From the NCBI GenBank assembly GCA_964608215.1, contig CAZSMV010000001.1:1410-65409 (forward strand): a stretch of DNA of 64,000 nt, read 5' to 3'. The notes beneath the pieces are model-generated. The model saw only the letters and a list, made by a program, of their open reading frames with translations. It did not search any database and had not been told where the DNA came from. The position numbers and the translations under genes were made by a program. Source of the DNA: an uncultured Staphylococcaceae bacterium. GTDB taxonomy: Bacteria; Bacillota_I; Bacilli_A; RFN20; CAG-826. Positions 1 to 11,035 of the stretch are shown piece by piece; positions within the stretch are counted from its first letter, which is position 1, and each line of letters starts with the position of its first letter.

Positions 1-28
1 TTTAGATAAATTTAACGAAGAACCTTCT

Positions 29-283
29 ATGGAGACATTGTCTGAAATAGCTAAAATTATCAGCTATAACATTTTTCAAATGGATGGAATCAAATTTGTT
101 ATCCCATTTAGTTGCCATAAAGAAGAATCAATGCAATTGTCGCTATTTGACGATGATGAACCTAAGCTGGAAGAATGCGCAGGGTGCAAAACCGGCAATC
201 ATTTTAAACATAACGGGATTTACGCGACAATCAAGGATTGGCGTAGCAATAGGATAGTTAGATTTATCGATTTAACAAAATAA
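29..283 (+). CDS. hypothetical protein; the frame is open to the window edge, so this may be the C-terminus of a longer ORF
   Basis: ORF track. The frame stays open from nt 2. The stop lies 15 nt before the next gene, whose AAGGAAGG SD overlaps it. No motif recognised. Confidence 0.35.
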   Translation: METLSEIAKIISYNIFQMDGIKFVIPFSCHKEESMQLSLFDDDEPKLEECAGCKTGNHFKHNGIYATIKDWRSNRIVRFIDLTK

Positions 284-298
284 AGGAAGGGCGTATTT

Positions 299-3200
299 AT
301 GGAAGGAAAAAACGAAAGATTTGAATCGACATTTGAATATAAGCTGATTTACATATTTGGCATCAATGATGGAAATCATGAGGGCGTTTTAAAAATCGGC
401 GATGCAACTTTAAAGACGAATGAAAAATACGATTCTTTTCAACCTAACTGCCATGAATTAAATGCTGCCGCAAGAAAAAGAATAGATGAATATACTGCAA
501 CTGCTGGGATTCAGTATCAACTTTTACATACAGAAATCGCTGTCATGAATTCAAACGGGGTCATTAAAGCGTTTAGAGATCATAAGGTTCATAGCGTTTT
601 AAAACGCTCCGGTATTAAAAATGTCTATTTTGATACGACGCATAAGCAAAACGAATGGTTTGAATGCAAACTCACGACCGCAATAGATGCGATAAAAGCG
701 GTTAAAGAAGGGAAGACTGCTTTGGCTGGTTATCAAATTGCAAATGGTAAAAGCCCAATAATATTGCGCCCTGAGCAAGAAGAAGCCATTAAACAGACAA
801 TTAAACAATTTCAATTCAACCATCATATGCTTTGGAACGCCAAGATGCGTTTTGGTAAGACTTTATCGACTCTTGAATTGGTAAAGAGAATGAAATTCAA
901 TAAAACAATTATCATTACCCATAGACCTGATGTAGATAAGGGATGGTTTGAGGACTTTAATAAGATTTTCTACGAAGATAATACAGCTTATTCTTATGGC
1001 TCAAAACAAATCGGGAAAACTTTAAAGGAACTTTTAGCATCAAACAAGCCCTTCGTTTACTTTGCTTCTATCCAAGATTTAAGAGGATCTGAAAAGGCGG
1101 GTGGCAAATTCGATAAAAACGATGATGTTTTCAAGACAAAATGGGATTTAGTAGTAACTGATGAAGCTCATGAAGGCACCCAAACTGAGCTTGGTAAAAA
1201 TGTTAGAGATTTGCTTATTAGCGATGATAATTACGATTTGAGTTTATCTGGAACCCCATTTAACCTTTTCGATCAATACGCTTCAGAAAATACTTTTACT
1301 TGGGATTATATAATGGAACAAAAAGCCAAATACGATTGGATTAGAGATCCAAATAAGCTCGGAGATTCTAACCCATATGAAGAATTGCCTAAGTTAAATA
1401 TATTCACATATCAATTAGAGAGATTGATTAAAACGGATTTTGATTTGGAAGACAAAGCATTTAATTTTAAAGAGTTTTTTAGAGTTTGGACCGGTGATAA
1501 AGAAAAAGACCATGCAGAAAATCTGGATGAAGTCCATATTGGCAAATTTGTTCATGAAGATGCGGTTAAAGCGTTTCTTGATTTATTAGTTACTAAAAGC
1601 GATACGACTAATTATCCATTTTCAACCGAGGAATACAGAGATTTCTTTAGGCATACACTATGGATGATTCCAGGAGTCAAAGAAGCTAAAGCCTTAACAG
1701 AACTATTAAAAGCACATCCTGTCTTTGGACAATTCTCTATTGTTAATGTAGCAGGGGACGGAGATTACGATTATAAAGAAGAACAAAAAGCTAGGGATAA
1801 ACTCTCTAAAGCCATGACTAATCACCCTGAAAACACTAGAACAATCACACTTTCTTGCGGAAGGCTTACAACTGGTGTAACGGTTCCGGAGTGGACTGGT
1901 GTTTTGATGTTATATGGCACATATATGACTGATGCTAAGTCATATCTTCAAACTATTTTTAGAGTTCAATCTCCAGGCAATATAAATGGTAAAATCAAAG
2001 AGAATTGCTATGTTTTTGATTTTGCTCCAGATAGAACGTTAAGAGTAGTTTACGATTCTGTTCAAAAGATGTCAAAGATGAGAAAACCACAAATAGATGT
2101 CGCTTGCTTGATGGGTGAGTTTTTGAATTTCTGTCCAGTCATTGCTTTGACTGATGTCTCTTATATGAAAACTTTAAGTACCAACGAGTTGCTTCAAGAA
2201 GTCAAAAGAGTATACGCAGAACGTGTTGTTGAATCAGGATTTGATGACAGATGCTTATATGACGATCTTAAATTGAAACAACTCGATAAAGATGCATTAG
2301 ATAAATTTGAGAAATTAAGAGAGATTGTTGGAAAGACTAATCAAACCAAAAAGACTGATGTAAAGGTCAACGAGAATGATTTGACCGCTGAGCAAAAGAA
2401 AGAACTTGAAGGTCTGGAAACAAAGCAAAAGGAGAAAAAAGAACTTTCTGAAGAAGAGAAGAAGAGACTTGAGGAACTCAAGAAACTTCAAGACAAAAAA
2501 AGAACTGCTATCTCGATTCTTAGAGGGATATCAATAAGAATTCCGTTGCTTGTTTATGGCATGGACATCGATTACTCTACGGATATCACTATCGATGAAT
2601 TTGCAGATAAGATCGATGATGCTTCATGGAAGGAATTTATGCCAACTGGCGTCACTAAGGATATATTTAAACAATTTATTGAATATTATGATAAAGACAT
2701 ATTCATAAAAGCTTGTAGAAATATAAGAACAATCGCAAAACAATGCGATGATCTAAAACCAACTGAGCGTATCCAAAAGTTGGCGGATTTATTCGCTAAA
2801 TTTAAAAATCCTGATAAAGAAACTGTCTTAACTCCTTGGAGAGTCGTAAATATGCATATGTCTCAGACTATTGGCGGTTATTGTTTTTTTGATGAAAATT
2901 TCGAAAAAGAGATAGAAAAGCCTGAGTTTAAAGATATAAAAGATATAACTAACAACATATTTAAGGATGATGGTAAAGTTTTAGAGATTAATTCAAAGAC
3001 TGGTTTATACCCATTATATGTTGCGTACACTTTCTATAGAGAGAAAGTTAAAGATAAAGAAGACTCTTTATCATTTGATGAATACAAAAAGCTATGGAAT
3101 GATGTTATAGAAAATAACATTTTTGTAATTTGTAAAACCGAGATGGCTAAGCAAATTACTAGAAGGACATTGCTTGGTTATACAAAAGGAAAGATCAACG

Positions 3201-4321
3201 CTCATGCATTTGATGATTTGATAAATCAAATGAAAGAAAAGCAACAACAATTAGTAGACAAAATTTTAAGACCATCATTTTGGAATAAAGGAGGCAAAGA
3301 TATGAAGTTTAATGCAGTAGTTGGAAATCCACCATATCAACAAGAAATAGAAAATAGCCATAGGCCAACGCCTGTTTATAATTTCTTTTATGATATTTCT
3401 TTTAGAATTAGTGATTTTGTTTCACTGATTTCTCCAGCTAGATTTTTATTTAATGCAGGGCAAACTCCATCTGAATGGAATAAGAAAATGCTAAATGATG
3501 AGCATATTAAAGTTGTTAAATACTTTAAGGATTCACATGATGTTTTTGCTACGGCTGATATTAAAGGTGGAGTGGCTATTCTTATTAGAAACTCTAATAT
3601 TGAATACGGAGCTATAAAAATATTTTCCGAAAATCCGATATTAACTTCTATTATAAAAAAAGTTTCCGATAAACATATGGAAAAATTATCTTCTATTGTT
3701 TTCAGCAAAAGTACATATGGATTAACACCTGAGTTATATAAGGACTATCCGGAATATTTTTCAAAAATGACAAAAGGCAATGAATACATTGTGGATGCCT
3801 CGATATTTGAACTAATGCCTTTAGTTTTTAGGAATGAAAAAAAAGAGTTGAATGAACTGAAGGTTTATGGGAGACATTCTAATACTAGGACATTCAGATT
3901 TATTAATAAAAAGTATGTAAAGGATATAACTAATTTACATAATTATAAAGTTATTTTACCAGGTGCAAATGGATCGGGTAAATTAGGAGAAAAATTAGGC
4001 GAACCATTTATAGGCGAACCTAGCGAATTTTATACTCAAACATATATGAGCATAGGAAATTTTGAGAAAAAAGAAGAAGCTTATAATTTATTAAAATACA
4101 TTAAAACAAAGTTTTTAAGAATAATGTTAGGTACTTTAAAAATAACACAAAATACAGCGAAAGATACTTGGGATAATATTCCATTGTTTGATTTTACTAA
4201 TCAATCAGAAATTGATTGGAACAAAAATGTAATTGATGTTGACAAACAACTATATAATTATTTTGATTTATCTTCTAACGAGATTGAATTTATAGAAAAA
4301 ACGGCTATTGCAATGAAGTGA
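299..4321 (+). CDS. 1340-aa multidomain protein: T5orf172/GIY-YIG-superfamily-like N-terminal domain, SF2 DEAH helicase, K/E-rich coiled coil, gamma-class N6-adenine methyltransferase-like module
   Basis: N-terminus: YKLIYIFG...LKIGDAT...NEWFEC pattern. Helicase: Walker A AKMRFGKT, VTDEAHEG (DEAH), LSGTPF, QTIFRVQS. MTase-like: VVGNPPYQ (aa 1010-1013), with a motif-I-like VLEINSKTGLYPL 116 aa upstream. SD AAGGAAGG precedes the ATG. Confidence 0.85.
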   Translation: MEGKNERFESTFEYKLIYIFGINDGNHEGVLKIGDATLKTNEKYDSFQPNCHELNAAARKRIDEYTATAGIQYQLLHTEIAVMNSNGVIKAFRDHKVHSVLKRSGIKNVYFDTTHKQNEWFECKLTTAIDAIKAVKEGKTALAGYQIANGKSPIILRPEQEEAIKQTIKQFQFNHHMLWNAKMRFGKTLSTLELVKRMKFNKTIIITHRPDVDKGWFEDFNKIFYEDNTAYSYGSKQIGKTLKELLASNKPFVYFASIQDLRGSEKAGGKFDKNDDVFKTKWDLVVTDEAHEGTQTELGKNVRDLLISDDNYDLSLSGTPFNLFDQYASENTFTWDYIMEQKAKYDWIRDPNKLGDSNPYEELPKLNIFTYQLERLIKTDFDLEDKAFNFKEFFRVWTGDKEKDHAENLDEVHIGKFVHEDAVKAFLDLLVTKSDTTNYPFSTEEYRDFFRHTLWMIPGVKEAKALTELLKAHPVFGQFSIVNVAGDGDYDYKEEQKARDKLSKAMTNHPENTRTITLSCGRLTTGVTVPEWTGVLMLYGTYMTDAKSYLQTIFRVQSPGNINGKIKENCYVFDFAPDRTLRVVYDSVQKMSKMRKPQIDVACLMGEFLNFCPVIALTDVSYMKTLSTNELLQEVKRVYAERVVESGFDDRCLYDDLKLKQLDKDALDKFEKLREIVGKTNQTKKTDVKVNENDLTAEQKKELEGLETKQKEKKELSEEEKKRLEELKKLQDKKRTAISILRGISIRIPLLVYGMDIDYSTDITIDEFADKIDDASWKEFMPTGVTKDIFKQFIEYYDKDIFIKACRNIRTIAKQCDDLKPTERIQKLADLFAKFKNPDKETVLTPWRVVNMHMSQTIGGYCFFDENFEKEIEKPEFKDIKDITNNIFKDDGKVLEINSKTGLYPLYVAYTFYREKVKDKEDSLSFDEYKKLWNDVIENNIFVICKTEMAKQITRRTLLGYTKGKINAHAFDDLINQMKEKQQQLVDKILRPSFWNKGGKDMKFNAVVGNPPYQQEIENSHRPTPVYNFFYDISFRISDFVSLISPARFLFNAGQTPSEWNKKMLNDEHIKVVKYFKDSHDVFATADIKGGVAILIRNSNIEYGAIKIFSENPILTSIIKKVSDKHMEKLSSIVFSKSTYGLTPELYKDYPEYFSKMTKGNEYIVDASIFELMPLVFRNEKKELNELKVYGRHSNTRTFRFINKKYVKDITNLHNYKVILPGANGSGKLGEKLGEPFIGEPSEFYTQTYMSIGNFEKKEEAYNLLKYIKTKFLRIMLGTLKITQNTAKDTWDNIPLFDFTNQSEIDWNKNVIDVDKQLYNYFDLSSNEIEFIEKTAIAMK

Positions 4322-4333
4322 TGAGGTATATAA

Positions 4334-4666
4334 ATGAAGGAAAAATCTTATGAAAGTCTTAAAAAGAATTTAATTGATGATCTATCTAATTGTTCAAGAA
4401 AAGAACTTGATTTAATATATAAAATGCTGAAAGAGTGTTTAAAGAAATTTGATAGGGATGGAATATTTAAAAACTGCCGAGATTTCTTTAAGTTAATTTT
4501 TAAAAATAAAAAAGAAAAATGCTTGTACTTTATTAATGATGTCGAAGATTCGAAAGATAAATTAACTGATACTGAAAAAGAAGAATTGAGAAAATATTTT
4601 CTTAGTATAAGTAATGTTCATAGGACTTTTCTAGAAAATTTACAAGCTTTATTTGGTGCTTCATAA
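4334..4666 (+). CDS. hypothetical 110-aa soluble, K/E-rich (probably helical) protein
   Basis: Starts 13 nt after the large ORF, with a GAGG SD. Its stop overlaps the next start (TAATG). Confidence 0.55.
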   Translation: MKEKSYESLKKNLIDDLSNCSRKELDLIYKMLKECLKKFDRDGIFKNCRDFFKLIFKNKKEKCLYFINDVEDSKDKLTDTEKEELRKYFLSISNVHRTFLENLQALFGAS

Positions 4667-5106
4667 TGAAAAAATTCTTTATTAAATCTCTAGTATTCTT
4701 CTTATATTTTTGCCTAATTCTATTGGTAGCCTATATTTTTAAATGGCCTCAAGAATTTGATAGCCATGTTTATATTGACAATGATTTCAAGGTTTCGAGC
4801 TACATTTTGCTAATTATTTATAGAATTCTAATTTATTTTACATTTCCATTTATCGTTTCCTTGTTTGAGTTTTTAAAGAACAAAATGAAACTAAAATATC
4901 GAAAACTTTTAATCCAAAATTTTAATATTCAATTTTTTACTTATGCTTTGATTAGTGGCATTTATGTTTTTTTTGGACTAGATAAATTGTTAAATGTTGA
5001 AATTTTTGGAGCCTCAGATGCTATGCTATTCATTACAGGATTTGTTTTTACAACAATTATAGATAAAACTACTCCTTTTTTAATTTCTGATAATAAAGAA
5101 ATGTAA
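4666..5106 (+). CDS. hypothetical 146-aa membrane protein with about 4 predicted TM helices
   Basis: Four hydrophobic stretches (FFIKSLVFFLYFCLILLVAYIF, SYILLIIYRILIYFTFPFIV, FFTYALISGIYVFFGL, AMLFITGFVFTTII). 1-nt overlap with the upstream ORF. Confidence 0.6.
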   Translation: MKKFFIKSLVFFLYFCLILLVAYIFKWPQEFDSHVYIDNDFKVSSYILLIIYRILIYFTFPFIVSLFEFLKNKMKLKYRKLLIQNFNIQFFTYALISGIYVFFGLDKLLNVEIFGASDAMLFITGFVFTTIIDKTTPFLISDNKEM

Positions 5107-5136
5107 ATTTTATCGATACTATCGTTATTTTTCCAA

Positions 5137-5196
5137 GGGTGCTAAAGGGTGCTAAAAATCTACACGATTTAAGTAGAGGGTGCTAAAATCGTATCA
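5137..5196. repeat. three GGGTGCTAAA copies (5137, 5147, 5178) plus TACACGATTT; contains the left copy (5147-5170) of a 24-nt direct repeat
   Basis: Read directly. GGGTGCTAAAAATCTACACGATTT matches 11145-11168 with 1 mismatch. Confidence 0.85.
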
Positions 5197-5227
5197 ATAA
5201 AGCATACCTTAGACATCTAAGAAATAT

Positions 5228-5259
5228 AGGTTTGATACAATATCAAACCTTTTATTTTT
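5228..5259 (+). terminator. rho-independent terminator closing the 299-5106 operon
   Basis: Perfect 10-bp stem AGGTTTGATA/TATCAAACCT, 3-nt loop, then TTTATTTTT. Confidence 0.7.
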
Positions 5260-5458: not shown

Positions 5459-8400
5459 ATGAAAAAGAATTATTTCTTGTCAGCTATTGCTATTTTGTTA
5501 GTTCTTTGTTCTTGTTCTGCTCAAAGTCATGAACATACTTATAGTGATACTTGGAGTCATGATAAAACTTATCATTATCATGAGGCTACATGTGGTCATG
5601 ATGTTAAAAAAGATGAAGAAAAACATACTTTTGTTGATATAGTAGTTGCTCCTACATATGATAAAGATGGATATACAAAACATACTTGTAGTATTTGCGA
5701 ATATACATATACAGATACTGTTACTCCTAAATTAAATCATAATTATTCTAGTGTTTGGAGTTATGATGAATCTCAACACTGGCACGTTTGTACTGATAGT
5801 GGATATGAAACATTAAAAACTGATATAGCAAATCATAATTTTACTGAGACCATAATTAGTCCAACATATGATGAAGCAGGATATACTTTACATGAATGTA
5901 GTGATTGTAAGTATTCATATAAGAGTGATTATACAGATAAATTAATTAGAACTTATAATTTAGTTTTTGATTTTAATGGTGGAACATCTTTAAGTCATGG
6001 CTCATCATTTAGTAAAGTTATTCAATCTTTTTCTAAAGATGATTTCTTTTATGATTTATATAAAGATGGATATATTTTTAGAGGGTGGAAATATAAAGGA
6101 GAAGTTGTTGTTAATGAAAATGGTGTATGGAATATCACCCCAAATTTAGAAGATACAATGACATTTACTGCTATATTTTCTGATAAAGTAAATCTAAATA
6201 TTAATATAAATATTGAAGGAGCTGGTACAGTAGACGGGAATGGTGAATATACTTTAAATACTTTTGTTAGTTTAAATGCAACACCTGCTCAAGGATATAA
6301 GTTTACTGGATGGTATAACGAAGGAACTTTACTTTCAGATAATAAACAATATACCTTTAAAATTACTAAAGATATGGATTTAGAAGCTAGATTCTCATTA
6401 GATTCGTTTACATTAACAATATCATCAAATAACTTAACATATGGTGAAGTTTTACCAATTGATGATAGTGGTGATCAAAAACAAGATACATATACTTTAA
6501 GTAAAGACTATAATGATTCTATTACTATTAAAGCTGTATCTAAAACTGATTCAGTTAGTTTTCTTGGCTGGTATGATGAAAATAATAATTTAGTATCTTC
6601 TAATTCTTTATATACATTTACTATGCCAAATCATGATTATTCATTAGTTGCTAAATGGAATTATTTTAAAATTGAATATAACTTAAATGGTGGGGTAAAT
6701 AGTGATGATAATAAGGATCATTATTCTACTGATAAAGTACCTACTTTAAATAATCCTGCCAAAAAAGGATATACATTCTTGGGATGGAAATATAAAGGAA
6801 ATTTTGTTACATCTATTGATTCTAGTTGGCTTACTGATATAAGTTTAGATGCTATTTGGGAAACTACAACATATAATGTAACTTATCATCTTGATGGAGG
6901 AGAAAATAATAGTAGTAATCCTAAGACTTTTACAATAAAAAGTGAAGATATTACTTTAGCCTCACCTACTAAAAAAGGATATGACTTTATGGGATGGTAT
7001 ACATCATCTTCATTAAGTGATGAAACAAGTATTACTACAATTACAAAAGGATCCACTGACGATGTTAATTTATATGCTAAATGGAAAATTATTACCTATA
7101 CAATTACATATAATGTAGGTTTAGGAAAAAACGATACTTCTAATCCAAAAACATATACTGTAGAAGATGAAATTACATTAGCTAATGCTACAAGAGATGG
7201 CTATACATTTACTGGTTGGAAAGGTGATAAAGGTGTAGTTGAAGAAATTAATAAAGGTACAGTTGGCAATCTTACTTTAACTGCAATGTGGTCTACTAAT
7301 TTAAATAGTTTATCAGTTTCTACTGAAGATCAAAATATGGGGTCTGCTAGAATTGTAAGTGGAGAAGGCTATACAGATGAAGAAATTACTATTAAAGCTA
7401 TAGTAAATAGTGGTTATTTATTTAAAGGTTGGTATGAAGGAGATACTAAAGTTTCTCCTAAAGAAGAATATACATTTACAATGGGAACAACTGATAAAAC
7501 ATTAGTCGCTAAATTTTATAATAAAGATGAAGTAAAAGAAATTTATAAAAATCAAGGAAGAATACCTGTAGTTAGTAGTGATTCAAAAACAGTAACTTAT
7601 GGTTTATATCCTCAAACTGTAGTAAGCGATACTGAGCTTATTAGCGAATTAGATAAGTTAACAACAACTGCATCTAATGGCTGGTATTTATATGATAATA
7701 CCTATTATGTTAAACAAAGCGTTACTAAATATGTATCTGATTGGGCAATGGAAACGGTTGGCACTTATAAATTTAGTGATGGATCAGAAGTAGTTACTGG
7801 AGATACGCGTTGGTTTAAATGTGAACCAATATCTTGGAAAGTGTTAACAATATCTACAACCGGATCAGGTTATTATACATATAGTTTAGTTTCTAATTTA
7901 ATATTAGATAATCAAAGATTTAATGAAAGATTTAATGGACAAAATGAAGAAGGATACTATGCTAATAACTATGAACAATCAGAGATTAGAAGCTGGTTAA
8001 ATGGTGAATTTTATAATTTAGCATTTGGTTTAGATAAATCTTATATTAAGAATATTACAATTGATAATAGTGAATCTAGCACTCAAACAACAACAAGTAA
8101 TCCATATGTATGTAATGATACGAATGATTATGTATATTTATTAAGCGATGCTGATTATCAGAATACATCTTATGGATTTTCAACTGAAACTTCTTCAGAT
8201 AAAGCGTCCTTAAGATGTCAGGTAACTGATTATTCTTTAGCAAAGAGTATTCAAATGTATGATGGATCTGACTATTCTAGATGTGGAACTTATTATACTC
8301 GTTCACCAATTGATAAAGTATCTACTCAAGCTTCTTTAGTTGAGTATTGGGGTGATTTATTCCCTGGAAGAGAAGGCAGCACATATGGTGTTTATAAAGA

Positions 8401-8467
8401 TTATTATGTTGATAAATATGAAGGTGTTAGGCCTGGTATTACAATAAAAGTTCAAACTGAAAATTAA
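5459..8467 (+). CDS. 1002-aa surface lipoprotein: two Cys/His-rich modules, about 7 or more Listeria-Bacteroides (Flg_new-type) repeats, C-terminal uncharacterised domain
   Basis: Signal peptide plus lipobox-like LCSC. Repeated GY(T/K/D/I/L)F.GW motifs (GYIFRGW, GYKFTGW, VSFLGW, GYTFLGW, GYDFMGW, GYTFTGW, GYLFKGW). Duplicated H..Y...W..D...H.H...PTYD..GYT.H.CS.C.Y.Y module. Confidence 0.85.
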   Translation: MKKNYFLSAIAILLVLCSCSAQSHEHTYSDTWSHDKTYHYHEATCGHDVKKDEEKHTFVDIVVAPTYDKDGYTKHTCSICEYTYTDTVTPKLNHNYSSVWSYDESQHWHVCTDSGYETLKTDIANHNFTETIISPTYDEAGYTLHECSDCKYSYKSDYTDKLIRTYNLVFDFNGGTSLSHGSSFSKVIQSFSKDDFFYDLYKDGYIFRGWKYKGEVVVNENGVWNITPNLEDTMTFTAIFSDKVNLNININIEGAGTVDGNGEYTLNTFVSLNATPAQGYKFTGWYNEGTLLSDNKQYTFKITKDMDLEARFSLDSFTLTISSNNLTYGEVLPIDDSGDQKQDTYTLSKDYNDSITIKAVSKTDSVSFLGWYDENNNLVSSNSLYTFTMPNHDYSLVAKWNYFKIEYNLNGGVNSDDNKDHYSTDKVPTLNNPAKKGYTFLGWKYKGNFVTSIDSSWLTDISLDAIWETTTYNVTYHLDGGENNSSNPKTFTIKSEDITLASPTKKGYDFMGWYTSSSLSDETSITTITKGSTDDVNLYAKWKIITYTITYNVGLGKNDTSNPKTYTVEDEITLANATRDGYTFTGWKGDKGVVEEINKGTVGNLTLTAMWSTNLNSLSVSTEDQNMGSARIVSGEGYTDEEITIKAIVNSGYLFKGWYEGDTKVSPKEEYTFTMGTTDKTLVAKFYNKDEVKEIYKNQGRIPVVSSDSKTVTYGLYPQTVVSDTELISELDKLTTTASNGWYLYDNTYYVKQSVTKYVSDWAMETVGTYKFSDGSEVVTGDTRWFKCEPISWKVLTISTTGSGYYTYSLVSNLILDNQRFNERFNGQNEEGYYANNYEQSEIRSWLNGEFYNLAFGLDKSYIKNITIDNSESSTQTTTSNPYVCNDTNDYVYLLSDADYQNTSYGFSTETSSDKASLRCQVTDYSLAKSIQMYDGSDYSRCGTYYTRSPIDKVSTQASLVEYWGDLFPGREGSTYGVYKDYYVDKYEGVRPGITIKVQTEN

Positions 8468-8497
8468 TAAGTAAATACATTAAATAATTAAAAATAA

Positions 8498-8526
8498 AAG
8501 GTTAGAATTTTGTTTCTAGCCTTTTT
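8498..8526. terminator. bidirectional rho-independent terminator
   Basis: 10-bp stem AAGGTTAGAA/TTCTAGCCTT (one G-U pair), 6-nt loop. A-run upstream and T-run downstream. Confidence 0.6.
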
Positions 8527-8964
8527 AGATTTTAAATTTCTTTTGCATCTTTTTTGACCATGAAAGATAAGAAGTTATATCTTTGATTACGTTGAGTCCA
8601 AATTCATCAAACAAGTATTCAAGATAGGGAATTTGTTTTAAATTATTTTCAAGCGCGGTTTGAACTAATGAATAATAGTTACAGGTTGTCCGAGCGCTTT
8701 TTTCAGTAAATGAGAACATCCAGTTTTTACAACCAATGACAATACTCTTAACTTTTCTTTCTGAAGGGTTTTTGTCAAGTTCAAGTCTTCCATCAAGTAG
8801 TATGTTATAAATTGATTTCTTGTTTTTAATTGCAAAATTCAATGCATCACCAAGTTTTGATTTTGGAAGAACGTTTGAATAATATTTCTCGCAAGTTTTA
8901 AAGAAATCATTGAACAATGGTTTGATAATTTCTTCTCTTTTTTCTTTATAAAATCAAAGTTTGA
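8525..8964 (-). pseudogene. IS66-family transposase, C-terminal fragment only (truncated remnant)
   Basis: LPKSKLGDALNFAI...LLDGRLELDKNPSERKVKSIVIGCKNWMFS...YYSLVQTALENNL fits the conserved IS66 C-terminal pattern. An in-frame stop lies just upstream of EEIIKPLFN. No DDE core is present. Confidence 0.7.
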
Positions 8965-9238
8965 ATAATTAAATGAAAATCAAAGCAAACAAGATAAGAA
9001 AGAGCTAGAGAAATATTTAACTGTAGTTAAAAGCATTTTAGTCAAATTGGAACGATACCGAAAATTTCTTTCTGTACTGTTGTAGCCACGTGAGGAAAGA
9101 TGGTATGAAAAACGTCGTTGAGTACATGTTCCAAAGGTTCTATGGAACGTCCAAAAAAACAAATACGGCGAATCGTTCTTAAAAATGTCGATTTGGTCGT
9201 AAGCTTCGTCCCTTATTTGCGCCAATATTTAGAATAGT

Positions 9239-9267
9239 TTGACTTTTGGGGTGCAAATTAATATAAT
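9239..9267 (+). promoter_or_regulatory. sigma-A type promoter for the Fic/Doc-like gene
   Basis: TTGACT, 17 nt, TATAAT. The spacer contains GGGGTGCAAA. Confidence 0.6.
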
Positions 9268-9301
9268 TATCATAAAAATTCACCCTAAAAGAGAGATTAA
9301 T

Positions 9302-10240
9302 ATGGATAATCAATATTTGCAAATTCAAACGTTGTTAGAACAAAGAGCAGAAATTAATGCAAGATTAAATTTGATTCCTTATGATGGTTCCATTGAAATA
9401 AAGGATAGAGATGGAAAAAAATATATTTATATTAGAAAACGTATTTTAGGTCGTAATACATCTACTTATGTTGATTTATATTCCGATGAACTTTTTGCTT
9501 CAATCTCTAGATTATTAAAAGATAGAAAAGAATATAAGAAGCAAATTAGAAAAATAAATAATAAATTAGTAAAGTTAGGTTATACTGAACAAGAATTATC
9601 TTCTAGAGTCTTATTAAATATTGATTTTGCTAGAGCTAATATGAAATCAAATATATATGATCAAGCTATACTTGAAGGCATTGCTACTACGTTTCCTGAC
9701 ACCGAAACAATTATTGAAAATGGAAAAGTTAGTGGAATGACCTCAACGGATGTGCAAAAAATATTAAATTTAAAACATGCTTGGGAATTTATTATGGATA
9801 AAGATGTAGTAGCATCTAAATCAAGTTATTCGATCCTTTGTTATATAGCTAGTCTTGTTAATGAGGGATTTTATACTTATGGTGGTAGAATTAGATGTGT
9901 TCCTGTAACAATTGGAGGAACATCTTATATTCCGCCAATACCAAATGAAAATGTTATCAAAGAAAAGATTAAGGAAATATTAAATAAAAATGATGAACCA
10001 GTTAATATAGCAATTGAGCTTTGTTTATATTGCATGAAAACTCAAATTTTTAATGATGGAAATAAAAGAGCCTCAGTAATATTTGTTAACCATTTTTTAA
10101 TTTCAAAAGGAGCAGGATTATTGGTTATTCCAGAGAGTAAAGTTCCTGAATTTAAGAAAATGTTAGTTACTTATTATGAAGATAGAGATAATGGTGAAAT
10201 ATTAGAATTCATGAAAAAATATTGTTGGAAAAATTTTTAA
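9302..10240 (+). CDS. Fic/Doc (Fido) family protein with a variant active-site motif
   Basis: QIFNDGNKRASV aligns to the Doc-type H.F.(D/N)(A/G)NKR motif, with Gln where the His is expected. The preceding GGRIRCVPVTIGGTSYIPPIP matches the Fic core. Start moved to ATG 9302 because the TTG at 9239 is the -35 box. Confidence 0.7.
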   Translation: MDNQYLQIQTLLEQRAEINARLNLIPYDGSIEIKDRDGKKYIYIRKRILGRNTSTYVDLYSDELFASISRLLKDRKEYKKQIRKINNKLVKLGYTEQELSSRVLLNIDFARANMKSNIYDQAILEGIATTFPDTETIIENGKVSGMTSTDVQKILNLKHAWEFIMDKDVVASKSSYSILCYIASLVNEGFYTYGGRIRCVPVTIGGTSYIPPIPNENVIKEKIKEILNKNDEPVNIAIELCLYCMKTQIFNDGNKRASVIFVNHFLISKGAGLLVIPESKVPEFKKMLVTYYEDRDNGEILEFMKKYCWKNF

Positions 10241-10393
10241 TAGGGTGCAATTACATTTAATAAAACAAAAATCACTCCACAAACTGTCATTGATGATTTT
10301 ATTTATTAATAAGCACAGGAACAAATGGATTTATAGTGTACACACACCCTATAAAAGAAAAAAAGCTATTAAATTGAAAGAGAGGTTCATAGT

Positions 10394-11035
10394 ATGAAAG
10401 ATGGAAAAATGCCTAATCCAAATAAAAGAAATCCTATTGCAGGATACGATAAAGAAATATATATAAAGCCAACAATAAAGAATAAAAATATTATTGTAGG
10501 AGATTTTTCATATATTGCAGATTCTGATTTTGAAAGTCATGTAACACATCATTACGATTGGAATGATGATAAATTAATTATAGGAAAATTTTGTCAGATA
10601 GCATCGGGTGTTGAATTTATTATGAATGGAGCAAATCATCAAATGAATTCGGTTTCAACGTTTCCATTTTATACTTTAGAAGGATGGGAACAAACACCAC
10701 CAACACAAAATGACTTACCAATAAAGGGAGATACTATCATTGGCAATGATGTATGGATAGGACAAAATGCAACTATTCTTCCAGGAGTTCATATTGGAGA
10801 TGGTGCAATAATTGGTGCTAATAGTGTTGTTGGAAGTAATGTTGATCCATATACAATAGTTGCAGGAAATCCTGCAAAAGTAATAAGAAAAAGATTTGAT
10901 GATGAACTAATAGAAAGTATGGAAAAATTAAAATGGTGGGATAAGGGCATTGATGAAATAAACAAACTAATTCCCATCTTGACTTGTGGTGATTTGGATA
11001 AAGTGAAGTCTGAAATAAAAAAGCAATTAGATTGA
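10394..11035 (+). CDS. vat: Vat-family streptogramin A O-acetyltransferase (xenobiotic hexapeptide-repeat acetyltransferase)
   Basis: HHYDWNDDKLIIGKFCQIASGVEFIMNGANHQM...FPF...LPIKGDTIIGNDVWIGQNATILPGVHIGDGAIIGANSVV...VAGNPAKVIRKRF closely follows the VatD-type sequence pattern. Length is 213 aa. SD GAGAGG. Confidence 0.85.
   Translation: MKDGKMPNPNKRNPIAGYDKEIYIKPTIKNKNIIVGDFSYIADSDFESHVTHHYDWNDDKLIIGKFCQIASGVEFIMNGANHQMNSVSTFPFYTLEGWEQTPPTQNDLPIKGDTIIGNDVWIGQNATILPGVHIGDGAIIGANSVVGSNVDPYTIVAGNPAKVIRKRFDDELIESMEKLKWWDKGIDEINKLIPILTCGDLDKVKSEIKKQLD

Follow-up and report, generated by a model that had tools for sequence, protein, structure and literature searches.

The closest described systems to the locus analyzed here are the ATP-dependent Type ISP restriction enzymes LlaGI and LlaBIII and the DnmA(YeeA)-YeeB-YeeC clusters, which are thought to be restriction-type defence systems (PMC9973331, PMC2731913). 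Morgan et al. (2009) also mentioned, without studying them, "large single polypeptides" of endonuclease, helicase, methylase and target recognition domain (TRD) (PMC2731913). The locus lies at the start of a 64,000-nucleotide (nt) stretch of DNA from an uncultured Staphylococcaceae bacterium (GCA_964608215.1, contig CAZSMV010000001.1, positions 1,410 to 65,409 of the forward strand), hereafter called the window. It contains a gene for a protein of 1340 amino acid residues (aa), preceded by the 3′ end of a methylase-like gene, M317, and followed by genes for a 110-aa and a 146-aa protein (Table 1). With a probability of about 0.65, we regard the locus as an ATP-dependent restriction-modification system resembling Type ISP, in which a helix-turn-helix (HTH) controller-like gene, M317 and the 1340-aa protein form the conserved unit, the family is built from three modules, and the two small genes are an unrelated insertion.

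Domain organization of the 1340-aa protein

A first-pass annotation, made from the sequence alone, had read the large protein as a T5orf172/GIY-YIG-like domain, a superfamily 2 (SF2) helicase and an NPPY methyltransferase. Its open reading frames (ORFs) and motifs were reproduced, and both Pfam and the conservation among relatives agreed with its domain reading. Pfam matched Eco57I (PF07669) to residues 939–1083 (E = 1.6e-26) and ResIII to residues 155–321 (E = 2.5e-15), with no match to the MmeI domains. The T5orf172 match was weak on the whole protein (E = 0.045), and on isolated residues 1–160 the T5orf172 model (PF10544) scored 21.7 bits against a Pfam cut-off of 20; among 25 relatives, 24 matched T5orf172 (best E = 1e-7) and 16 matched MUG113. 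Residues Y18, R61, E119 and W120 of this domain are invariant. The N-terminus is therefore of the T5orf172/MUG113 type (GIY-YIG clan) and not the Mrr type of Type ISP, as the annotation had proposed when it called the nuclease different.

The helicase motifs read RPEQ, MRFGKT, THRP, DEAHEG, LSGTP, LTTGV and QTIFRVQSP. In 15 homologs (43–67% identity), motifs Q, I, Ia, II (DEAHEG), III, V and VI as well as GNPPYQ were invariant, and the GIY-YIG-type positions, 'ETVLTPW' and 'LEINSK.GLYPLY' were also conserved. Residues ∼1085–1260 varied among the same homologs and were assigned to the TRD, since such variability is expected for a specificity domain. The lysine- and glutamate-rich (K/E-rich) stretch that had been noted as a coiled coil was found at residues 696–735, and AlphaFold2 (AF2) modeled it as long helices flanking a low-confidence loop.

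The methylase part of the protein can be divided into two halves at motif IV. The first, named N′, carries motifs X′ (ETVLTPW), I′ (LEINSKTGLYPLY), II′ (FVICKT, in which the acidic residue is absent) and III′ (AHAFDDL). The second, the C-half, consists of motif IV (GNPPYQ, nt 3323–3340), the variable TRD and a conserved C-terminal helical part, and the 348-position PADLOC model MTase_II PDLC03375 covers residues 1002–1334.

The AF2 model of residues 141–1340 had a mean predicted local distance difference test (pLDDT) score of 83. Its top Foldseek matches were LlaBIII (4xqk, E = 7e-21, ∼1430 aligned columns) and LlaGI (5ffj, E = 1e-14), followed by the adenine methylase CamA (target TM-score 0.51), SNF2 ATPases, SauUSI, RadD and BrxX. 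The analogy to Type ISP enzymes drawn in the annotation is therefore structurally sound. Single-sequence and profile searches of the PDB gave nothing meaningful for the N-terminal domain or for M317, and neither NCBIfam nor PHROGs had a model that matched one of the four proteins of the locus.

Several variants of the large gene were recorded among relatives. In one locus (L018 5242–5874, minus strand, and 5914–9165, plus strand), the segment for residues ∼48–258 is inverted, which is either a real inversion or an assembly artefact of the metagenome-assembled genome (MAG). A Lactococcus plasmid protein has an extra N-terminal DUF4145 domain (L033 3587–4000), and the large proteins of L034, L036 and L037 are likewise longer (about 1410–1460 aa), with shorter partners (230–306 aa). 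In Enterococcus faecium, a DUF262 gene follows.

M317 and the HTH gene upstream of the large gene

The partial ORF at positions 29–283 was found to be the final 84 residues of the 317-aa methylase N-half M317, whose gene begins 670 nt upstream of the window (9032–9985 of L001, the window contig extended upstream). The PADLOC model MTase_II PDLC03390 matched the 84-aa fragment with E = 8.6e-22 and the full M317 end to end with E = 1.5e-105. M317 contains 'AEVFTP' (motif X), 'EITCGEAPYL' (I), 'YGFD' (II, with the acidic residue), 'NIFQMDG' (III) and a CCCH zinc ribbon, and NPPY is absent. Across 50 sequences, 61 columns are invariant and the mean column identity is 60%, with no variable region, which indicates strong constraint. 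No Pfam relative of M317 was found; a 230-aa plasmid version matched just positions 20–103 of Pfam N6_Mtase and MmeI_Mtase. The M317 model (pLDDT 91.6) gave insignificant Foldseek matches (best PglX, E = 0.05), the leading ones all being Eco57I-like methylases, and hhalign detected no relation between M317 and the large protein.

The annotation had named the partial upstream ORF among the genes whose co-occurrence should be examined. Wherever sequence 5′ of the large gene was available, an M317 homolog directly precedes it (18 clear cases and a divergent form in L015), and the pairing was also found in L023, L025 and plasmids of lactic acid bacteria (LAB) and Enterococcus. Downstream of the large gene, no conserved gene was found in the genome loci compared. 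A 63-aa HTH_3 controller-like gene overlaps the start of M317 and heads the operon, with homologs in L003, L004, L005, L008, L012 and L023. A small HTH gene at the head, overlapping the methylase start, fits the layout expected of restriction-modification operons controlled by a controller (C) protein. The conserved unit consists of the HTH controller-like gene, M317 and the 1340-aa protein.

Two in-frame fusions were also seen: in P0283, M317 is joined to the T5orf172-helicase part of the large protein, and in P0336 to the part that follows the helicase. Both may be deletion derivatives.

Split and fused arrangements of the methylase in relatives

A search of 1.84 billion representatives with the M317 profile returned 2367 relatives (cluster representatives), and about a quarter of the best 150 were roughly 590–720 aa long. 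In five that were scanned (650–711 aa), M317 was joined to an Eco57I NPPY/TRD half; one of them, P0252, reads '...KMKFDFVIGNPPYQ...'. With P0252, 80 viral or proviral loci were collected and sorted into four groups. Group A (7 of the 80) has the arrangement of the window. In the split form of group B, an N-half gene is followed by a 348-aa gene starting 'MGKKLFDYVIGNPPYQ' and then by a gene for a helicase protein of ∼1150 aa. In the fused form of group B, four loci encode a 650-aa protein joining N to C, and the same kind of helicase protein comes next in two of them (L050, L059). Group C comprises 56 loci (L057, L061–L063, L065, L066 and L068–L117, from IMG/VR) with an orphan N-half of 260–300 aa on phage contigs, most of which are about 30–60 kb long; within 7 kb of these orphans, neither a G[ND]PP[YF] motif in any frame nor a helicase partner was found.

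In the ∼1150-aa protein of group B, an N-terminal T5orf172-like sequence (matched by Pfam MUG113 in the case of L059) is followed by a ResIII helicase and a linker, and the C-terminal region aligns with residues ∼800–1000 of the 1340-aa protein. The aligned motifs (group B versus window) are FTP/LTP for X′, MKSGMY/NSKTGLY for I′, CAPT/CKT for II′ and CDTL/FDDL for III′. The group B proteins stop some 20 residues short of motif IV, where the window protein runs on 'MKFNAVVGNPPYQ', and the C-half of the window protein is homologous to the free-standing 348-aa genes. PADLOC likewise keeps separate 'MTase_II' models for the N-half (PDLC03390) and the C-half (PDLC03375). Because of the group B alignment and the coverage by PDLC03375, the window protein can be described as a helicase-nuclease subunit fused to a catalytic and specificity half.

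These comparisons show a family built from three modules: N (M317), C (motif IV, the catalytic rest and the TRD), and R-N′, in which a T5orf172 nuclease is followed by an SF2 helicase, a linker and another N-half, of divergent sequence. They also show three arrangements, namely all modules separate, N fused to C, and C fused to R-N′ as in the window. Since C is found fused to either type of N-half, there is Rosetta-stone evidence for the three parts acting in one complex; the manner in which they might cooperate there is taken up below.

Specificity swapping at motif IV

Locus L023 and the window share 99.5% DNA identity from 93 nt 5′ of the HTH gene to the NPPY codons. The identity breaks at window position ∼3338 (about codon 1013; L023 9041), and the TRDs beyond are just 13–43% identical in protein. 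In the ArsB gene next to the cassette, identity between the two loci drops to 73%, from which it follows that the cassette moved recently. The difference between the window and L023 is a natural TRD swap exactly at the NPPY codons. Silent C-half cassettes that have no start codon and begin 'AIIGNPPYQ', some of them inverted, were also present in L014 (Bacteroides graminisolvens) and L021, and the large gene of L021 is broken within this motif. These cassettes suggest that TRDs may be switched by inversion at the NPPY-coding sequence.

A possible mechanism and a possible role of M317

In the restriction-modification system proposed here, the TRD and the NPPY pocket would recognize an asymmetric site and read or write N6-methyladenine there. 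Unmodified sites would license the helicase motor to translocate along double-stranded DNA, and the GIY-YIG-type nuclease would then cut, by analogy with LlaGI and LlaBIII. M317 would act with the C-half, most likely as an S-adenosylmethionine (SAM)-binding partner required for protective methylation, and the HTH protein may delay restriction when the system enters a new host.

Several points weigh against this proposal. In the AF2 model, the N′ and C parts of the 1340-aa protein form a complete Rossmann-type fold. The protein may therefore be able to methylate on its own, and the part proposed for M317 in the fused form is putative. Poor SAM binding by N′ is a prediction from its motifs (a single glycine in motif I′, no acidic residue in motif II′). 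That T5orf172 domains act as nucleases is itself largely a prediction. The global TM-scores against LlaBIII were low (0.26–0.30), and phmmer and profile searches of PDB sequences found no relative of the 1340-aa protein.

A more specific form of the proposal, in our estimate rather improbable, is that one C-half is shared by two alternative N-halves. Together with M317, whose motif I is canonical and whose motif II is acidic, the C-half would form the protective methylase; with N′, it would only read methylation and license translocation and cutting. If so, this would be an undescribed way of guaranteeing the same specificity for modification and restriction. As a corollary, the orphan N-halves of phages (>50 contigs) could borrow the C-half of the host to modify phage DNA at any host specificity, a Ral-like form of anti-restriction.

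It is rather unlikely, in our estimate, that the 1340-aa protein is instead a self-sufficient Type ISP-like enzyme, able both to methylate and to cut, and M317 a dead methylase-like accessory or regulatory subunit, or the remnant of a second methylase. Dnmt3L and METTL14 are inactive methylase partners to which M317 would then be comparable. The complete methylase fold and invariant NPPY of the large protein are in keeping with this idea, as are its motif I′, which presumably resembles the single-glycine motif I of M.TaqI, the lack of motif IV in M317 and the lack of a significant structural match for the M317 model. However, the strong constraint on M317 described above argues against a dead or vestigial subunit; in relatives the N-half is fused or adjacent to the catalytic half and forms a methylase there; and the helicase proteins of the split systems are entirely without a C-half.

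The 110-aa and 146-aa proteins

The two genes behind the large gene encode, according to hydropathy, a 110-aa protein with no membrane segment and a 146-aa protein with three to four, so that the four transmembrane segments and the soluble partner given in the first-pass annotation are within the range found. Their junctions were largely as annotated: the TAATG overlap of 1 nt between the small genes was confirmed, and the gap behind the large gene measured 12 nt, not 13, with a GAGG ribosome-binding site inside. Homologs of the 146-aa protein are rare, with 10 among 5.8 billion proteins and a single extra metagenome locus. In six contexts, the 110-aa homolog always precedes the membrane protein (∼141–153 aa). 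In L028 and L031, the pair follows, at a 1-nt overlap, an unrelated operon of a C gene, an EcoRI-like methylase and a GmrSD_N-HNH gene; in L026/L027, L032 and L035 it stands alone, with a TATAAT box and a ribosome-binding site just 5′ of it in L026 and L032.

The annotation had joined the three genes into one defence operon, with the membrane protein as an abortive-infection-type effector. The tight packing, the common terminator, the lack of a promoter-like site of note in between, and the position of the pair behind restriction-modification operons in three of six contexts (L028 and L031 among them) are all compatible with that model, and yet we consider it very unlikely. None of the 20 genome loci carries the pair, nor do L023, L025, the plasmid loci or the 7 viral loci with the architecture of the window. 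In L026/L027, L032 and L035 it stands alone, in L026 and L032 behind a promoter-like box. The cassette of L023 is 99.5% identical and has no pair: there, homology to the window returns at 89% from window position 5107, the base after the stop codon of the 146-aa gene. The pair is therefore a dispensable insertion here. It is, as far as these comparisons indicate, a module of two genes, unrelated to the system, that entered between the end of the large gene and the terminator and is presumably read through from the operon.

The pair recurs at the 3′ ends of two unrelated kinds of restriction-modification operon. The idea that the pair and the HTH C gene form a frame around swappable restriction-modification genes (the C proteins being 55–59% identical) was considered and is not favoured, because the HTH C genes of the window and of L023 lie in the 99.5% block and encode proteins that are 98% identical, and L023 has no pair. 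Pfam matches of the small proteins to Cbl_N and DUF3290 were below the cut-offs and were disregarded.

Layout and surroundings of the locus

In L001, the gene order is AbiEi-like, HTH, 63-aa HTH_3, M317, the 1340-aa gene, the 110-aa gene and the 146-aa gene. Just 5′ of the operon (L001 7581–8754), the AbiEi-like gene, which PADLOC matched at E = 1.4e-31, and a gene for a 180-aa HTH protein overlap each other, and no AbiEii partner was seen. The terminator annotated at 5228 was recovered as a hairpin with a 10-bp stem and a T-run, and a matching hairpin also lies 3′ of the large gene in L023, a locus without the small genes. Between the 146-aa gene and the terminator, GGGTGCTAAA occurs in three copies (window 5137–5190), and it is kept in L023 (10075–10135 and ∼4685–4700). 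In L023, a terminator-bearing segment of ∼107 nt is repeated on either side of the restriction-modification cassette (4520–4626 and ∼10150–10247).

The accessory region described in the annotation was found downstream, with an IS66 remnant, a Fic gene and a hexapeptide acetyltransferase (Table 1). An ArsB/CitMHS transporter gene also lies downstream of the operon. The block from the 1002-aa ORF to the acetyltransferase is missing at the matching position of L023.

Table 1. Features of the locus, of its surroundings and of related loci. Positions refer to the window unless a locus is named.
Feature	Position	Strand	Evidence or remark
63-aa HTH_3 controller-like gene	L001 8841–9032		overlaps M317 start; operon head; upstream of window
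3′ end of M317 gene (317-aa methylase N-half), last ∼94 codons, stop at 281–283	1–283	+	PADLOC, conserved linkage
1340-aa restriction-modification protein (putative): T5orf172 nuclease, SF2 helicase, linker, methylase N′-half, methylase C-half with TRD	299–4321	+	
T5orf172 (GIY-YIG clan) nuclease-type domain, residues 17–135	347–703	+	Pfam, relatives
SF2 helicase-like ATPase, residues ∼155–600	761–2098	+	Pfam ResIII and SWI2_SNF2, motifs, Foldseek
K/E-rich helical linker, residues 696–735, at the position of the Type ISP 'coupler'	2384–2503	+	sequence, AF2
Methylase N′-half, residues ∼800–1000	2696–3298	+	motifs, alignment with ends of split-system helicase proteins
Methylase C-half, residues 1001–1340	3299–4318	+	PADLOC PDLC03375, homology to free C-half genes
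110-aa soluble helical protein, first gene of inserted two-gene module	4334–4666	+	absent from related loci
146-aa protein with 3–4 membrane segments, second gene of inserted module	4666–5106	+	hydropathy
Bidirectional intrinsic-terminator-like hairpin	5228–5250	.	10-bp stem and T-run; closes operon
Pair of small genes, window	4334–5106		
Pair of small genes, L028	L028 5669–6435		
Pair of small genes, L031	L031 5332–6089		
Pair of small genes, L026	L026 5669–6426		
Pair of small genes, L032	L032 2827–3584		
Pair of small genes, L035	L035 5639–6429		
Silent C-half/TRD cassette, L014	L014 11856–12929	+	
Silent C-half/TRD cassette, L014	L014 14017–13019	-	
Silent C-half/TRD cassette, L021	L021 3577–4602	+	
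Silent C-half/TRD cassette, L021	L021 5686–4661	-	
Lipoprotein-like ORF, 1002 aa	5459–8467		Listeria-Bacteroides repeats and C-terminal DUF6273
IS66 fragment	8525–8917		3′ of the 1002-aa ORF
Fic gene	9239–10240		3′ of the IS66 fragment
Hexapeptide acetyltransferase	10394–11035		3′ of the Fic gene

Distribution and significance

The family comprises at least 120 near-full-length clusters at ≥52% identity. It occurs in six bacterial phyla and one archaeon, on plasmids of LAB and Enterococcus, and in prophages. The 20 genome loci come from Bacillota, Bacteroidota, Akkermansia, Mucispirillum, a Rickettsiales MAG and an archaeon, and the pair of M317 and the large gene is carried by plasmids of Lactococcus, Enterococcus, Pediococcus and others. 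On these plasmids, M317 is annotated as 'N-6 DNA methylase', 'restriction endonuclease' or 'hypothetical protein', and the large gene as 'Eco57I restriction-modification methylase domain-containing protein'. Current annotation thus hides the family among Eco57I-domain proteins and hypothetical or restriction endonuclease proteins.

It is the region upstream of the large gene, rather than the membrane protein, that makes the locus interesting. Should the module logic hold, the Type ISP, Type IIG and Type III architectures would be linked by a methylase that is cut and rejoined at motif IV; this would explain specificity swapping and phase variation at the NPPY codons, and it would predict a general phage counter-measure. 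For the genetics of starter cultures and gut microbes, the family would represent a common barrier to DNA transfer, with recognition sites that could be read from methylomes.

Comparison with known systems

The first-pass annotation had found the genes not assignable to any named system. PADLOC does label parts of the locus as 'Type IIG RM' and 'Type II MTase'; the IIG label, however, concerns the C-terminal third only, and NCBIfam gave no match. It is highly improbable that the locus encodes a Type IIG enzyme of the usual kind, that is, an Eco57I-like enzyme that cuts at a fixed distance independently of ATP, with a Type II methylase as its companion. The Pfam Eco57I match and the PADLOC matches to REase_MTase_IIG (PDLC03626, E = 1.2e-46, on the 1340-aa protein) and MTase_II (on M317) point that way. 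However, in each of the seven family members scanned, of which the window protein is one, PDLC03626 aligns just with the last ∼340–470 residues. In addition, invariant helicase motifs, present as a complete set, fill a third of the protein, Type ISP enzymes, which depend on ATP, are the best structural matches, and the supposed companion M317 has no catalytic motif.

Literature searches aimed at this architecture gave no published description of the T5orf172 version, of the half-methylase partner or of the split arrangements, only the related YeeABC and Type ISP work, and no identifiable mention of the family was found in the papers on lactococcal defence that were consulted. The family thus appears to be a so far undescribed form of ATP-dependent restriction-modification, with PADLOC already labeling the parts as restriction-modification.

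Eco57I-like Type IIG enzymes and their companion methylases resemble the window family in having an Eco57I methylase and TRD fused to a nuclease and a second methylase-like gene adjoining; the window family differs in its large conserved helicase motor and in a companion without the catalytic half. By activities, the DnmA(YeeA)-YeeB-YeeC clusters are similar in that an adenine methylase with a TRD, an SF2 helicase and a T5orf172/GIY-YIG protein form a conserved unit, YeeB and YeeC being likened here by description. In those clusters, however, each of the three is a protein of its own, with a complete MmeI-type enzyme as the methylase, and no half-methylase partner has been reported, whereas the methylase module of the window is fused and has no MmeI Pfam match.

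The split relatives, with a methylase carrying the TRD and a helicase-nuclease subunit, recall Type III (Mod/Res) and Type I systems. As in those systems, modification and restriction appear to draw on a single specificity module, and TRD cassettes seem to be shuffled by inversion as in phase-variable hsdS and mod. The window family departs from them in a gamma-class methylase that is itself divided at motif IV, in an N-terminal nuclease of the GIY-YIG type and in a restriction subunit that bears its own pseudo N-half.

The Type ISP enzymes LlaGI and LlaBIII differ from the window family in their Mrr-type PD-(D/E)xK nuclease, in place of which the family has T5orf172/GIY-YIG. They also act alone, whereas the window family has a strictly conserved methylase N-half and often an HTH controller. 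Further traits of Type ISP enzymes are translocation driven by ATP, cleavage upon collision at head-to-head sites and N6-methyladenine on one strand. Sequence similarity between them and the window protein was undetectable by phmmer and profile searches, and relatives of the window protein split the methylase into separate genes. In overall design the two are nevertheless alike: both have a single polypeptide ordered as nuclease, SF2 ATPase, helical coupler, gamma-class adenine methylase and TRD, and LlaGI and LlaBIII, like relatives of the window family, are found on lactococcal plasmids.

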